A DNA stretch of 64,000 nucleotides from a virus (taxonomy: Duplodnaviria > Heunggongvirae > Uroviricota > Caudoviricetes): the IMG/VR virus record IMGVR_UViG_3300021963_000042, positions 1-64,000 of that record; one strand, 5' to 3'. Shown here piece by piece: positions 45,110 through 63,600 of this stretch (positions are counted from its first letter, which is position 1; every line of letters begins with the position of its first letter). A program made the position numbers and the translations under genes. A model generated the notes under the pieces. That model had not been told where the DNA came from. It worked only from the letters and a program-made list of their open reading frames with translations, and ran no database searches.

Positions 45110-45194
45110 TGTTATTCTCCTTAATTACATGTTATTCTGTGTTTTGCTTCGAGGAGCAATTGAAAGCACTAAATTATTTATTGAAAACACGATT

Positions 45195-57408: not shown

Positions 57409-57504
57409 GAATTCCCCAAAATTGTATTTCTCAACAGTTATTTATGTTATTTCAGATCGCTAAATATAACAGCTGCGAAGCGAATTTAACCTTATGGAGA
57501 TAAT

Positions 57505-58155
57505 ATGGAAGATCAAAATCAAACCAACTTACCTTCGCCATTAGTCGGCGATGCACCAACAGAAGACTATAACTTCGAATATTCACCAGTCGAAGAAACT
57601 TTTCAAAGACGTCTTTTCCCAACAATTTTCGCAAGCTATAAATTTGCAGATTGGGAAAAAATTGCCCAACCTCTGATCAATCTATCGAATGGATGGAATG
57701 TTCCAGATGAAGATCATGGCAAAGATATTATGGAATTAGATCATCCTGCAGTCAATAGACTGAAAGAAATCGTCTATGAGATCTGCGAAGGTCTTGAGTT
57801 ATCAAAAGACGACAATGGTAGAACACCAGTTATTGTAGGTTCAAATACATTGTTCCAACAAAAGGGCGAACACATTCCACCACATAACTACGAGTTCTCT
57901 ACTTTAGTATTCTCGTTCGTGGCGAATGTTGGGGAAAATGGTCCAATGACATACTTCCCAGATCCACGTGGTGGCGTACAAGCCTTGCGTAAAATTGTTT
58001 CTCAAAATCTAGTTAGCACAAGTTTCGGCATTAAGAGTCGCATTGGAGAAATCTATGTAACTCCAGGTTATGCTCAGCGTTACATCGAAACTAACTTAGA
58101 ATCAGAAACCCACGTAATCGTAAACGTCCGTGTTAACTTTGTTATGATTAGTTAA
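57505..58155 (+). CDS. divergent 2OG-Fe(II) oxygenase-like protein (TIGR02466-like)
   Basis: The only plus-strand gene, with a GGAG SD. RLFPTIFAS resembles the paralogue N-terminus. HIPPHNYEFSTLVFSFV and VNVRVNF fall at equivalent motif positions. Confidence 0.4.
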   Translation: MEDQNQTNLPSPLVGDAPTEDYNFEYSPVEETFQRRLFPTIFASYKFADWEKIAQPLINLSNGWNVPDEDHGKDIMELDHPAVNRLKEIVYEICEGLELSKDDNGRTPVIVGSNTLFQQKGEHIPPHNYEFSTLVFSFVANVGENGPMTYFPDPRGGVQALRKIVSQNLVSTSFGIKSRIGEIYVTPGYAQRYIETNLESETHVIVNVRVNFVMIS

Positions 58156-59205
58156 TATTTTCTTATTAACATAGAAGACTGAATAGTCTTCCAACAAAAA
58201 CAGCCAAGGTGCAATGGGATTTCCTAACGAGGAAATCCCTTTTGGCTTGTTCCACGCATAATAGCTATCCCCACTATATTCCTCAATTAGTTCTCGCATA
58301 ACCCATCTGTGGGTTAGTGGTTTACCCACATCTTTAGTGAATGGCTCTTTAGTCGTTAAAACATATTTCTGAAAGTCGTCAGTATTAAAGAAATGGTACT
58401 GATTGTTTTGTTGTTTGGTTGCAATTCTGGTAGAATACTCAGCTGTATACCAATCGAAATTAAAGATTAACCACCAACGCAAATCCCTAAGTGTCTCGAT
58501 TTTCTTTGGGCTGGCTTTAATAGAAGGCAGCAGGAATTCGTGCAACTCATCGTTTATGCATTTGGTGTAATCAATTAATGGGTCGTCATTATTAAATTGG
58601 TGATGGAAAAACGAAACCTCAGTTTTAACCTTTCCAGTAGTAAAATCGTCTACTGGACCAAATAACTGGTTTCCAAAAAACCCTGTTACAAAAATACTAT
58701 TAGAGTCACCATCATCAAAATCTCTAGTAGAAGAAACTTTAAATTTATACTTCACGCCTGAGTTTTTAATGCAATTATCAAATAGAGAACCCGATTCTAA
58801 AATAGAACTATATGTTCCATAAACTGTAATTTGACTGGGGTCGTCTACTTGTTGCATTAGAGAGAATAACGCCAGAGTGCTGTCAATACCACCACTCCAC
58901 ACTACAGTTATGGGTTTATCTAATTCTACCAATTCTTTCGTTCTTTCCTCAACACACTGTCTGAACGACTTATTAAAAGTAGAATCTATCAGTGGTATTT
59001 GCAAAAGACCAGGCTTAATATTCAAATAGTGTGGAGTCTGTCCAGTTCTATCGTAAACTGAATTCAAATTGAGTTTATGCTTATCGAAGAATGCATAAAG
59101 TTCTTTATGATTTGGAGCAAGATATTCATCTATATTTTCTTGCCTTTTGTTGATCAAGTCCAATGATTTAATCAAATTGATATTGTAGTATAATAACTGT
59201 TTCAT
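58102..59205 (-). CDS. PP-loop ATP pyrophosphatase (AsnB/ExsB-like)
   Basis: 367 aa. VVWSGGIDSTLALFSL (SGGxDS) at about residue 100. The 3' end overlaps the convergent plus-strand gene. Confidence 0.55.
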   Translation of the reverse strand: MKQLLYYNINLIKSLDLINKRQENIDEYLAPNHKELYAFFDKHKLNLNSVYDRTGQTPHYLNIKPGLLQIPLIDSTFNKSFRQCVEERTKELVELDKPITVVWSGGIDSTLALFSLMQQVDDPSQITVYGTYSSILESGSLFDNCIKNSGVKYKFKVSSTRDFDDGDSNSIFVTGFFGNQLFGPVDDFTTGKVKTEVSFFHHQFNNDDPLIDYTKCINDELHEFLLPSIKASPKKIETLRDLRWWLIFNFDWYTAEYSTRIATKQQNNQYHFFNTDDFQKYVLTTKEPFTKDVGKPLTHRWVMRELIEEYSGDSYYAWNKPKGISSLGNPIAPWLFLLEDYSVFYVNKKILTNHNKVNTDVYDYVGF

Positions 59206-59213
59206 AATTTCCT

Positions 59214-59242
59214 CAAAAACAAAAAAGGGAGCCTGAGCTCCC
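59214..59242 (-). terminator. intrinsic terminator (bidirectional hairpin)
   Basis: AAAAAA-GGGAGC-CTGA-GCTCCC-TTTTATTT. Near-copy of the gp23 terminator hairpin. Confidence 0.5.
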
Positions 59243-59266
59243 TTTTATTTAGACACTAAAATTTAA

Positions 59267-60214
59267 TTAGTGTAACTGAATCTTCTGAACCAAACCTGGA
59301 GTGAAGTAGTCAGCAAACTTCTCATATACTTTAGAAGTAACAGCTTTGAACTTGCTTTCTTCTTCAGCAGACATCTTAACAACTTCAACACCCTTTGCTT
59401 CACACTCAGCCAAAATCTCTGGAATGTTAGCAACAGATTCACGACGCTCTTTGCGAGCAGCGTTGAAAGCAGCAGTAGCCATGATCTCTTGAGTTTCAGC
59501 GTCAAACTGTTTCATGAAGTCTTGGTTAACGATGATAGAAGTCAAGAACAAGCTATGAGCAGTGTCGTTAACAACTTTGAAAGATTCGTTCTGGTTTAGT
59601 GGGAAAATACGTACGTATGTAGATTCACCAGCAGAGATAACACCAGCGTCAGCTGCTTCGTTCATTTCTTCAAGAGCGATGTCCTTGTTTGGAACTGCGC
59701 CAAGAAGTTTGAAAGTCTCAACAGCAACTGGGCTGCGAGAAGTGCGAACAGATTGACCTTCCCAAGCTGCAACAGTGTCAGCACGGAAGTTTGCTGGAAC
59801 TACACGGTAGCCACCAGAGTAAGTGAAAGACATAGCCTTGATATTGCTATTCTTAGAAACGCCAGCTAGCAACTCAGTACCAATCTCGCCTTCTAGAACA
59901 CGATCAGCATGGGCGTGATCTTGGAACAAGAAAGGAAGGTCTAGAGCGTGTAGGTCTTGATTATAGTCAGCCAACCAAGTAGTATAGATGTGGCTCATTT
60001 CGATAGCACCAGAATCAACCAACTGCATTAGTTCATTCTTAGTGATTTTCTTACCATCATTATACTTTGCAGAGTAGTCAGACAAAGAAAGAACTTCGAT
60101 GTCGAACATACCACCAGTTTGCTCATTTACTTCTTTAGAGAAGGACTCGGCTACTTTCAAAAATAGACCGATAGGCTCGTGGGCAATAACCCATTTAACA
60201 TGCTTCTTTTGCAT
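59267..60214 (-). CDS. DctP-type (TRAP) solute-binding protein homologue, no signal peptide
   Basis: 315 aa. KWVIAHEP, LDLPFLFQDHAHADRVLEGEIGTELL, YSGGYRV (conserved Arg) and GQSVRTSRSPVAVETFKLLGAVP align to DctP/SiaP. Confidence 0.7.
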   Translation of the reverse strand: MQKKHVKWVIAHEPIGLFLKVAESFSKEVNEQTGGMFDIEVLSLSDYSAKYNDGKKITKNELMQLVDSGAIEMSHIYTTWLADYNQDLHALDLPFLFQDHAHADRVLEGEIGTELLAGVSKNSNIKAMSFTYSGGYRVVPANFRADTVAAWEGQSVRTSRSPVAVETFKLLGAVPNKDIALEEMNEAADAGVISAGESTYVRIFPLNQNESFKVVNDTAHSLFLTSIIVNQDFMKQFDAETQEIMATAAFNAARKERRESVANIPEILAECEAKGVEVVKMSAEEESKFKAVTSKVYEKFADYFTPGLVQKIQLH

Positions 60215-60227
60215 TTATATCTCCTTG

Positions 60228-60554
60228 TTATTTTCTTAAATACTTAAGATGTTCAGCGCATCTAAGATCTAGTTTCCATTTTTCACCTTCAGCCGTAACC
60301 TCTAATACAATAATTGGTAGGTTCAGTCTGATGATTCTTTCCTTATATTTATAAACGAATTCTTTCTCTTCTTGCGATGCCTCGATTATAAAGTCGGGAA
60401 TCTGTATACTGAAGTTGTTATTCTGGAATTTGTTTTCTAAAGAATTGTGATAGAAAATATCAGCTAGTGTTCTTCGATTATAATTTGATACTGCAGTTCC
60501 ATATCTTGGATACCTATTGATATTCCATATGTTGCAGTCTAAAAATCCACTCAT
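60228..60554 (-). CDS. hypothetical protein
   Basis: 108-aa ORF within the cassette. Confidence 0.3.
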   Translation of the reverse strand: MSGFLDCNIWNINRYPRYGTAVSNYNRRTLADIFYHNSLENKFQNNNFSIQIPDFIIEASQEEKEFVYKYKERIIRLNLPIIVLEVTAEGEKWKLDLRCAEHLKYLRK

Positions 60555-60555
60555 T

Positions 60556-62019
60556 TTATTTAGGTTCTACTGGAACTTGGACTACTGGAATATTCAAAGG
60601 TTTGCGGACTTTCCAACTCTTTTTTCCAGTCTTCATATATTCGTTGTCGATTACCTGAATGCTAGTAACACCATCGAAACGAATTCGATCACCTTTAATC
60701 TCTGTCAAAACCAGACCATCAGTCATCTTGAATAGAGCAGCGCTCAACATCGCTAGGTTATACCAGAATAGGTTTTCGCAAGCCTGCTCCCAGTATTGAT
60801 CTTCTAAGAACAAACAAGCACCCTGACATAACTGTACAACTGGACAAGAAGGGCATTCTTTACGAGTAGACCAATGATAAGAGTTCGTTAGACGAATGTT
60901 ATCAAAATCTTCGATGTTTCCAATATTATGCTTGGTTAAGGAAGAAGTATTCTGACACGTAGTAACATTACCCTTCATATCGATGGCAATATTGTCTTCC
61001 TTATCCATACCACACTTTTGACCAACAGCTTCAGCTGGACGACCATAGACGATAGACTCAAAGAATGACTTGACCTTCTGATAGATAGTCCAACTAAATT
61101 GGTTCTTATTATCGATGGTTTCTTCAAATAAAGTATGAAGGATTTCTTTCTTCTCGTCTGTGGTTTGGAGAGAGTGAGTCATACCAGAGTCATCATATGG
61201 CAACATTAATTCTTCTGTAGTAACTTGAATTTCACGCTGGTCGACTCCAGGATTTTCAAATCCGACGTGTTTCTTATTGAGTTTATCCATAATAAAATTA
61301 CGGACAGAAGGAATAGAAACATTCTCACGTGTAAGAACACAGTTGAAAGTGAAACGTGTCAACCCCATAGTTTTCATAGCATAAACAACAGCGTCTTTTG
61401 CTACAGGTTCATCTAATGGATCTGGTCCACGATTCTGCGCATGCAGTGGTCCATCATGAGACATACCGATAGAAAACCCCATACGATTAAACCAATCAAC
61501 TTTTTCTCTAGTTAAAAGAGAACCATTGGTAACCATCATGAAACTAGCATTAGGGTAAACCTTCTTGATCTTTTCAGCAAGAGGTTTCAGTGTTTTCCAG
61601 TAAACCATCGGCTCACCACCCCAAAACTCAAGACGGAATTTATCATATGTTCCAAAGTTGAAATTCTCTTTCATCTTTTGGATCAATTCTTCCGCATCTT
61701 CTGGACCACCTACTGGGTCGTGTGGTTGGTGCGCTTGGTTACAGTAAGAGCATGCGTAGTTACACTTAAGACCCATCGTGATCTTAAGCGTAGTTGGCTT
61801 ACGGGATTTCTTACCGTGGAGTGCAGGATCGTGTGGGTTTGTAATATTTGCAGGTTCCCACACCTTTGCATTCATTTGATATTGAAGACCCTTACTCACA
61901 TGCTCGAGCGAGGGTCTTTCGTGCGTTTCTTCCCAATACATTTCAGATGTCATTGGGTCGTAAACCATATTAACTTTCACATCATTAGCCCCTTGTAGGA
62001 CTAGCGTAAATTTGCTCAT
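60556..62019 (-). CDS. radical SAM enzyme with C-terminal SPASM domain
   Basis: 487 aa. CNYACSYC (CX3CX2C) and C-terminal CPSCPVVQLCQGAC (CX2CX5CX3C). Confidence 0.7.
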   Translation of the reverse strand: MSKFTLVLQGANDVKVNMVYDPMTSEMYWEETHERPSLEHVSKGLQYQMNAKVWEPANITNPHDPALHGKKSRKPTTLKITMGLKCNYACSYCNQAHQPHDPVGGPEDAEELIQKMKENFNFGTYDKFRLEFWGGEPMVYWKTLKPLAEKIKKVYPNASFMMVTNGSLLTREKVDWFNRMGFSIGMSHDGPLHAQNRGPDPLDEPVAKDAVVYAMKTMGLTRFTFNCVLTRENVSIPSVRNFIMDKLNKKHVGFENPGVDQREIQVTTEELMLPYDDSGMTHSLQTTDEKKEILHTLFEETIDNKNQFSWTIYQKVKSFFESIVYGRPAEAVGQKCGMDKEDNIAIDMKGNVTTCQNTSSLTKHNIGNIEDFDNIRLTNSYHWSTRKECPSCPVVQLCQGACLFLEDQYWEQACENLFWYNLAMLSAALFKMTDGLVLTEIKGDRIRFDGVTSIQVIDNEYMKTGKKSWKVRKPLNIPVVQVPVEPK

Positions 62020-63225: not shown

Positions 63226-63600
63226 TTAGCAGTTGCAAGCGCAGTTACAGTTACAGTTGCAAGCACAGTTACAGTTGCAATTAGATCTGTACCACTGGAA
63301 ACCGCCCATCGTATTATCTTGGTTGTCGTGACGGATACCATCAGTAGAAGCGTTAATAGCTCCACCAACAGAAGTGTTACGGAAAATATTGATACGTCTG
63401 TCAGTAGTAACACCGAAACCTAAGTCACCAGCATCACAGTTACCGCAGTTACAGTTAGCTCCGTTACATGCGCAGTTCCATGCGCAGTTAGCGTTTGGCT
63501 CTGTATAGGTTCTGTTGCCTGCGTCATAATAATTCCAAAATAAGTCTACAACGTCTGTGCCATCAGCACGTCTGTGTCCTGTTGCTCCGTGATAAGCCAT
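63226..63600 (-). CDS. Cys/Asn-repeat protein (RiPP-precursor-like or metal-binding fibre accessory)
   Basis: 124 aa, 15 Cys. NANCAWNCACNGANCNCGNCD internally and the C-terminal tail NCNCNCACNCNCNCACNC-stop. Lies 3 nt downstream of a fibre gene. Confidence 0.5.
   Translation of the reverse strand: MAYHGATGHRRADGTDVVDLFWNYYDAGNRTYTEPNANCAWNCACNGANCNCGNCDAGDLGFGVTTDRRINIFRNTSVGGAINASTDGIRHDNQDNTMGGFQWYRSNCNCNCACNCNCNCACNC

Follow-up and report, generated by a model that had tools for sequence, protein, structure and literature searches.

A leaderless DctP-fold protein in T4-like phages of aquatic environments and its genomic partner, a predicted AsnB-like synthetase domain

IMG/VR record IMGVR_UViG_3300021963_000042, of which we analyzed one 64,000-nucleotide stretch (positions 1 to 64,000, here called the window), carries on its minus strand a gene for a 315-residue protein resembling DctP, a substrate-binding protein (SBP) of tripartite ATP-independent periplasmic (TRAP) transporters, which an earlier note on this DNA had singled out as a cytoplasmic member of that family in a phage. 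The host of the gene is a T4-like myovirus, encoding portal, sheath, large terminase, a gp23-type head protein, a gp43-type polymerase and long fibre proteins, and its portal is 57% identical to that of Pelagibacter phage Mosig, 55% to that of Methylophilales phage Melnitz and 49–55% to those of cyanomyoviruses; no tRNA genes were found within the 64-kb window. Following the gene through its relatives, we observed a DctP-like fold, a leaderless state, purifying selection, retention of the arginines R137 and R157 and persistent pairing with a gene for a PP-loop protein, f1 (f numbers denote gene families and L numbers loci; coordinates are collected in Table 1).

Evaluating the protein against profile and structure databases, we found the DctP/SiaP-family similarity claimed by the earlier note to be sound, both by sequence (Pfam DctP, PF03480, E = 1.2e-42, 146.7 bits against a cut-off of 23.4, residues 20–301 on profile positions 13–284 of 286) and by full-length matching of its model to TRAP SBPs. 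The NCBIfam model NF037995 (TRAP_S1) gave 104.8 bits, exceeding its cut-off of 50, the stricter dctP subfamily model TIGR00787 gave 115 bits, below its cut-off of 175.05, and PHROGs assigned the protein to a family of unknown function. With the AlphaFold2 model (pLDDT 79.8) as query, Foldseek returned 259 PDB matches at E ≤ 1e-3, the top listed ones all TRAP SBPs with template-modelling (TM) scores of 0.66–0.79, and full-length superpositions on 4ovs, 4n8y, 4pak and 9dsy reached E ~1e-18 and TM-scores of 0.72–0.79. The modelled protein has the two-domain type II SBP fold, at an identity of only ~16–25% to any solved SBP. Turning to its N-terminus, we found seven residues, mostly charged or polar, ahead of the first beta-strand motif (W8) and no signal peptide, as the earlier note had stated. 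An in-frame TAA directly abuts the ATG on its 5' side, so no N-terminal extension is possible, and with this both a hidden leader and the upstream start that the note had named in advance as a threat to its reading are ruled out.

The leaderless state extends to the whole viral family. In a search of 1.84 billion representative proteins, the subfamily is recognized by the pattern [KR]-W-[VL]-[IL]-A-H-E-P plus T-Y-S-G-G-[YF]-[RK] and comes in two forms, one of ~310–320 residues starting a few residues before the motif and one of ~330–360 residues with a classical hydrophobic signal peptide before it. All 91 viral copies examined are leaderless: 83 have at most 10 residues before the Trp, and in the remaining 8 the open reading frame (ORF) was called too long, there being a Met within it and no hydrophobic core. 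A classical leader stands ahead of the same motif in 29 cellular relatives, the leader-bearing members coming from Bdellovibrionota, Elusimicrobia and myxobacterial metagenome-assembled genomes (MAGs), and in 185,579 species genomes the pattern AFTYSGG[YF][RK] is nearly confined to Bdellovibrionota, Elusimicrobia and a small number of myxobacterial MAGs (loci L008–L065). Leaderless homologues are also present in cellular genomes, for example of Bdellovibrionota. Leaderless copies of a phage-like kind also turned up on a few small contigs assigned to Polynucleobacter and other MAGs, and these contigs may be phage DNA that was binned wrongly. Relatives number 2020 at E ≤ 1e-5 in a large protein database, the best 120 clusters of these being at least 82% identical, almost all 315 residues long and on contigs of up to 207 kb, and at least 456 IMG/VR stretches encode a relative. 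No close homologue was found in cultured phages, tblastn against 50,697 GenBank phage records giving 7 weak matches of at most 25.5% identity (mostly unannotated or bacterial records) and megablast of the region giving no match. Compared with the window copy, the viral genes had a median Nei-Gojobori dN/dS of 0.11 over 40 pairs, which indicates purifying selection.

We next consider the binding site, for which the earlier note had taken the Arg of YSGGYR to be the carboxylate clamp. That Arg is present, but in an alignment to SiaP (the reference sequence was checked for length and for residue types at 10, 127, 147, 187 and 209) it is R137 and corresponds to SiaP R127. The clamp conserved across the family, at 96.8%, is SiaP Arg147 on beta-strand 6 (PMC5812351), and its equivalent here is R157 (GQSVRTS), also present; S198 aligns with N187 and H220 with H209. 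Both R137 and R157 are invariant in the close phage clade, and among 68 distinct viral copies the beta-strand-6 clamp R157 is retained in 65, position 137 is R in 63 and K in 5, and H12, R202, H220, T225, E256 and R257 are invariant. Among the 107 leader-bearing members of the wider subfamily the canonical clamp Arg occurs in 49 and R202 in 87, among the 72 leaderless ones the counts are 45 and 68, and W8, H12, P14, H220, T225, E256 and R257 exceed 90% in every group. With a clamp Arg in about half of its members and a distinct conserved set as its signature, the subfamily is thus unusual for PF03480. H12 aligns with SiaP A11, which belongs to the binding site and of which a mutant has been crystallized (A11N, PDB 2xa5).

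Calling and clustering ORFs in 91 viral instances and 58 cellular loci, we found that f1, detected by hidden Markov model, adjoins the DctP-like gene in 60 of the 91 viral loci and lies within three genes of it in 74; f1 is lacking from 12 loci, six of which are cut by the contig end. This pairing holds across at least four otherwise different neighbourhoods and three cellular loci (the fibre-region cassette, an AMP-binding/SDR/BKACE cluster, transporter clusters and Bdellovibrionota contigs), and such adjacency in unrelated contexts far exceeds any other association of the DctP-like gene. In the window type the order is VrlC ... S74-chaperone fibre, (CN)n protein, f12, radical SAM/SPASM, f3, DctP-like, f1, then a convergent 2-oxoglutarate (2OG) oxygenase, f5, f6, fibre ... 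gp13 and gp14, which matches the “host recognition cluster” of pelagimyophages, reported to hold radical SAM cassettes and substrate transport (PMC7029224). A second context, with the DctP-like protein at 84% identity, runs AMP-binding enzyme, SDR, BKACE, f15, f1, one or more leader-bearing TctC-like proteins, DctP-like, Asp/Arg hydroxylase, and further arrangements exist besides these two. The trio f15-f1-DctP-like with SDR, BKACE and AMP-binding genes also stands on 242-kb and 504-kb contigs (a Pseudobdellovibrio bin and an unclassified bacterium), where it adjoins a Dlt-like set of carrier protein, AMP-binding enzyme and MBOAT, and other leaderless Bdellovibrio-type copies lie downstream of an MFS transporter and an unknown 204-residue protein. 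Viewed locus by locus, the cluster of AMP-binding, SDR, BKACE (DUF849), f15 (~260 residues), f1 and DctP-like genes is common to phages L001, L003 and L076 and to the Bdellovibrionota-binned L010 and L008, and in L010 it continues with a 78-residue carrier-like protein, an AMP-binding enzyme, a single-transmembrane 367-residue protein and an MBOAT, a Dlt-like surface-acylation set.

Seeing so constant a partner, we assessed f1 itself. Its S-G-G-x-D-S PP-loop motif is invariant in alignments of 32 and of 62 sequences, its database relatives are all named “hypothetical,” and its sequence matches are only marginal (LarE, nitrile synthetase, GMP synthase, AsnB, TilS). The window f1 has no Pfam match, falling short of the PF00733 gathering score, and reached no NCBIfam cut-off; weak PF00733 matches were obtained for 11 of 32 family members, the best at E = 6.6e-4. 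Its AlphaFold2 model (pLDDT 90, pTM 0.89) ranked carbapenam synthetase, human ASNS, beta-lactam synthetase and AsnB at the top in Foldseek and has, as modelled, the fold of an AsnB-like synthetase domain. It aligns only with the C-terminal synthetase domain of these ~500-residue targets (211–249 residues), and an N-terminal glutaminase domain of the N-terminal nucleophile (Ntn) type, or a homologous one, is missing from the 367-residue protein, so that by its model f1 looks like an AsnB-type synthetase domain without its glutaminase. AsnB-type synthetases activate a substrate carboxylate as an acyl-adenylate. DctP-type SBPs are described as carboxylate binders acting through an arginine filter (PMC4646407; PMC5812351). 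Both partners would therefore point to carboxylate chemistry.

The DctP-like gene also stands apart from its neighbors in its putative expression signals. Upstream of it, inside the f3 coding sequence, is TATAAATA, a perfect T4-type late-promoter consensus kept at a conserved distance from the gene; 62% of the 91 viral copies have it in the 160 nt ahead of them vs 6% of other genes, and for ATAAATA the shares are 86% vs 16%. The only other families so marked are the fibre-operon starters f4 and f5 and the oxygenase f11. A NATAAATA motif also precedes the sheath gene in the window, and the motif regions there (60346–60353, 57409–57446 and 45110–45190) are consistent with T4-type late promoters. 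Downstream, a GC-rich terminator-like hairpin between the DctP-like stop and f1 is kept in 31 of 34 distinct spacers, with compensatory changes in its stem. Judged by these signals, the DctP-like gene looks like a separately promoted and separately terminated late gene, unlike f1, f2 and f3, and its own late-type promoter and terminator suggest a product more abundant than f1, as for a binder rather than a catalyst. It is also the slowest-evolving gene of the cassette (Table 1).

Table 1. Features of the DctP-like locus in the window and evolutionary rates in the cassette (rate given as median identity to the window copy across window-type loci).
Feature	Coordinates	Strand	Description	Median identity
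Leaderless DctP-fold protein	59267..60214	-	315 aa, starts MQKKHVKWVIAHEP; K-W-V-I-A-H-E-P residues 7-14, T-Y-S-G-G-Y-R 131-137, clamp Arg R157	82%
Shine-Dalgarno AAGGAG	60221..60226	-	6 nt 5' of the DctP-like ATG	
Late-promoter-like motif TATAAATA	60346..60353	-	132-139 nt upstream of the DctP-like start, inside the f3 coding sequence	
Terminator-like hairpin	59223..59246	-	AAAAGGGAGC-TCAG-GCTCCCTTTT then T-run, between DctP-like stop and f1; GC-rich	
f1, PP-loop (SGGIDS) protein	58102..59205	-	367 aa; constant genomic partner of the DctP-like gene	46%
f3	60228..60554	-	108 aa; precedes the DctP-like gene in the fibre-region cassette (49/91 loci)	47%
Radical SAM/SPASM enzyme	60556..62019	-	487 aa, phrog_1802; fibre-region cassette only	39%
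2OG-Fe(II) oxygenase-like protein	57505..58155	+	216 aa, phrog_81; convergent with f1	47%
Second strong terminator-like hairpin	58216-58239	+	GGGATTTCC-TAAC-GAGGAAATCCC then T's; after the 2OG oxygenase, inside the 3' end of convergent f1	
(CN)n protein f13	63226-63600	-	124 aa; two Cys/Asn blocks, NCAWNCACNGANCNCGNC and C-terminal SNCNCNCACNCNCNCACNC	56%
f5				80%
f6				75%
Fibre f8				73%
f12				31%

The earlier note had correctly placed a radical SAM enzyme and a PP-loop enzyme beside the gene and had suggested that the protein could deliver a substrate to them, a suggestion of which the PP-loop half is supported by the 60 adjacent loci and the radical SAM half is weaker. Radical SAM and f3 occur in 49 of the 91 loci and in the fibre cassette only, a 2OG-type oxygenase lies within three genes in 29, and f15 is present in 13. 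As an obligate partner the radical SAM enzyme was rejected, given these 49 loci and its 36–39% identity there vs 82–90% for the DctP-like protein. It has weak matches to thioether/ranthipeptide maturases, its nearest NCBIfam models are SPASM peptide maturases, all far below cut-offs, and its best PADLOC matches are prokaryotic viperins (E = 1.6e-15, generic radical-SAM core only, residues 84–235). The (CN)n gene comes just behind the S74-chaperone fibre gene, with the radical SAM/SPASM gene two genes downstream. Its Cys/Asn blocks are kept in 21 related loci, in contrast to the diverging remainder of the protein, and its product may be a radical-SAM substrate; an obligatory substrate it is not, as type A' loci have the radical SAM enzyme without a (CN)n gene. 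Neither f3, considered as a PqqD/RRE-like domain, nor f15, considered as a known enzyme, had a Pfam or PDB profile match. A defence or anti-defence identity was discarded as well, with no meaningful PADLOC matches for DctP-like, f1 or f3 and only the generic viperin-like one for the radical SAM enzyme.

For the question of transport, we evaluated the membrane partners that a TRAP SBP would serve. The earlier note had reported no DctQ/M genes nearby, and within the 64-kb window this proved right: DctQ and DctM are absent, no real gene there has two or more predicted transmembrane segments, and the sole hydrophobic ORFs are short antisense shadows within fibre genes. Neither DctQ nor DctM lies within ±4 genes of any of 51 cellular subfamily members, whose multi-transmembrane neighbors are MFS, ABC permease, MBOAT, TctA, Kup, MgtE and others. 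The note had also reasoned that TRAP membrane components encoded elsewhere would speak for a transporter gene, and such genes, of the TRAP and tripartite tricarboxylate transporter (TTT) types, do exist in some related phages, but each set comes with its own leader-bearing SBP, to which the leaderless protein is extra. In L125/L146, the sole loci in which DctQM adjoins the leaderless protein, the order is f1, an f1-like 372-residue protein, f1, DctQ, DctM, a 362-residue DctP with signal peptide and the leaderless DctP-like protein, and L133 and L128 have an analogous arrangement with TctB, TctA and a leader-bearing TctC-like protein. Related phages are thus able to export SBPs and have a dedicated one for their transporters, besides which the leaderless protein is encoded, and the reading of the gene as a transporter auxiliary metabolic gene (AMG) is therefore not rescued. 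Complete transporter cassettes were seen more widely in related T4-like contigs (L125/L146–L160; L133, L135, L128), consisting either of DctQ, DctM and a leader-bearing ~360-residue DctP or of a leader-bearing TctC-like protein, TctB and TctA, and they often adjoin one to four f1 paralogues.

Our preferred reading, to which we give a probability of roughly 0.4, is that the DctP-like protein binds a carboxylate inside the cell as a partner of the AsnB-like enzyme f1 and is made in larger quantity than f1. A stand-alone protein of the DctP (TRAP SBP) fold would be synthesized in the infected cell, remain in its cytoplasm and bind an organic acid there; f1 would activate the substrate carboxylate as an acyl-AMP and convert it to an amide, lactam or hydroxamate; and the binding protein would either capture the acid and present it to f1 or hold acid or product stoichiometrically. 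The leaderless protein would thus act downstream of import, with separate TRAP/TTT systems and their exported SBPs doing the carboxylate import itself. We hold this reading tentatively, because the two genes are not tightly co-evolving, f1 falling to 43–45% identity in the same loci in which the DctP-like protein stays 82–90% identical. Several further observations weigh on the same side. The association is guilt by association; six loci with ample flanks have no f1 nearby (L100, L103, L104, L117, L124, L143), 47 of the 51 cellular subfamily members lack it, and L154 and L155 have f1 paralogues beside TRAP cassettes and no leaderless protein. The terminator-like hairpin separates the DctP-like gene from f1 and the late-promoter motif belongs to the former only, a late, separately terminated transcript among fibre genes being expected of a structural protein too. 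Finally, only about one in two members of the wider subfamily has the clamp Arg, so that carboxylate binding cannot be taken for granted throughout the family.

Other readings share parts of this evidence. We regard as doubtful the paired proposal that the leaderless protein and f1 form a two-component system, in which an ex-periplasmic SBP serves a carboxylate-adenylating amidotransferase inside the cell, either as the subunit that captures its substrate or as a sink for its product, or that the SBP, expressed late, is by itself a sponge for 2-oxoglutarate or another central carboxylate. Taken by itself, the stand-alone sponge appears unlikely to us; here an abundant late cytoplasmic binder would sequester a host carboxylate and so alter host regulation or protect a pool, f1 would be a mere frequent neighbor, and the ligand could be a central-metabolism acid (2-oxoglutarate, succinate) or a carboxylate-bearing signalling molecule. 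Phage small-molecule sponges are an established concept (Tad1, Tad2, Acb2), and the high conservation of the leaderless protein while its neighbors all diverge, the high single-gene expression suggested by its own promoter and terminator, the 2OG-dependent oxygenases within three genes and the six amply flanked loci without f1 would all suit one. Set against these are the strength of f1 adjacency in unrelated contexts, the leaderless homologues in Bdellovibrionota operons behind an MFS importer, which suggest ordinary metabolism, the lack of PADLOC or anti-defence-like matches, and late timing, a poor fit for countering early host defences.

The earlier note had further raised a lectin-like, receptor-binding component of the fibre apparatus, and a protein that is made late, joins the tail or fibres during assembly in the cytoplasm and leaves the cell by lysis would indeed need no signal peptide. 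On the host surface it would bind an acidic sugar (uronic, sialic-like or Kdo), and the neighbors of the protein in sequence and structure include sialic-acid SBPs as well as 4n8y and 4xfe, which we take to be uronic-acid SBP entries. The window-type gene also sits among fibre genes in the host-recognition cluster between VrlC and gp13/gp14 (PMC7029224) and has its late-promoter-like motif in common with the fibre-operon starters f4 and f5. We nonetheless find this idea improbable and not supported, as the 315 residues amount to a bare SBP fold with no anchoring domain or extension, the gene is the most conserved of its region with no receptor-type diversification, other phages carry it among metabolic and transporter genes away from fibres, leaderless homologues occur in cellular genomes including Bdellovibrionota, and its strongest partner is an enzyme. 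Catalysis by the DctP-like protein itself seems quite improbable. To our knowledge there is no DctP-family enzyme, and the residues that would form a catalytic site acting on a carboxylate in the f1 pathway (H12, H100, H102, R202, H220, E256, R257) include an invariant set also found in leader-bearing, presumably periplasmic members, even though that His/Glu/Arg set is the subfamily's own, roughly one member in two of the wider subfamily does without the clamp Arg, H12 occupies a known binding-site position, no TRAP membrane partner stands beside any of the 51 cellular members and evolution from SBP to enzyme has precedent (PMC7683729). The reading we find very improbable indeed is the conventional one, an auxiliary transporter gene whose product reaches the periplasm, feeds host DctQM and boosts dicarboxylate uptake during infection. 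The family assignment and the JGI automatic name speak for it, as do the TRAP and TTT genes of related phages, and phage-encoded exported SBPs are known (cyanophage PstS); yet 0 of 91 viral copies has a signal peptide and there is no alternative start, TctC-like and other DctP proteins of these same phage lineages do bear clear leaders, phage-encoded DctQM brings its own leader-bearing DctP and no DctQM stands beside any cellular subfamily member.

Viral ecology surveys would count the gene, under its automatic label, as a nutrient-uptake AMG, and on present evidence that label is misleading for a family which uncultured aquatic myoviruses carry on several hundred contigs at least. If the protein is the intracellular partner of f1, it would represent a new use of the SBP fold and point to an unrecognized phage pathway acting on an organic acid; if the two-component or sponge proposal is right, part of a transporter would be employed by hundreds of aquatic T4-like phages to handle metabolites inside the cell, and this DctP subfamily would have left transport altogether. 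The DctP subfamily of Bdellovibrionota, Elusimicrobia and myxobacteria is flagged as lacking a TRAP membrane partner. The question is testable, the DctP-like protein and f1 being small, soluble-looking and modelled at pLDDT 80 and 90.

Compared with known systems, the closest are the TRAP SBPs, textbook extracytoplasmic proteins. SiaP, DctP and the EFI-series entries 4ovs, 4n8y, 4pak and 9dsy have the same Pfam family and the same full-length two-domain fold, and SiaP R147, R127 and H209 have their counterparts in the phage protein (R157, R137, H220); unlike them, the phage protein lacks both a signal peptide and a DctQ/DctM partner, does not reach the TIGR00787 cut-off, bears the signature W8, H12, P14, TYSGG, R202, T225, E256 and R257, and in its subfamily has Ser or Thr in place of SiaP N187. 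Orphan TTT/TRAP SBPs such as the Bordetella Bug proteins and AdpC also lack adjacent membrane subunits (PMC5812351), but the known orphans are exported, periplasmic proteins whereas neither the phage protein nor its closest cellular relatives have a leader. Cyanophage PstS and the TctC-like and DctP proteins of L001, L125 and L133 are likewise phage-borne members of SBP families, the latter even from the same lineages, but all of these have classical signal peptides, and leader-bearing SBPs adjoin DctQM or TctAB in L125, L128 and L133, a pairing of its own that was never seen for the leaderless protein. For f1 the closest known relatives are beta-lactam synthetase, the carbapenam synthetase CarA and TsnB9, from which it differs in lacking the entire N-terminal Ntn-type domain, and we know of no AsnB-family synthetase paired with an SBP-fold protein. 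Re-use of the SBP fold beyond transport is familiar from MqnA, THI5 and LysR effector domains, which belong to other SBP classes. Cyclohexadienyl dehydratase is a further case (PMC7683729), again from a class other than DctP. The literature searched gave no cytoplasmic or enzymatic example of the DctP family (PF03480), and the searchable literature no description of a leaderless DctP-family protein in phages or of an SBP/AsnB-like pairing, the nearest on phage DctP/TctA being a passing mention of a viral tctA domain (PMC4164917). The parts of this locus are thus of known kinds, and it is their combination and location that are new.

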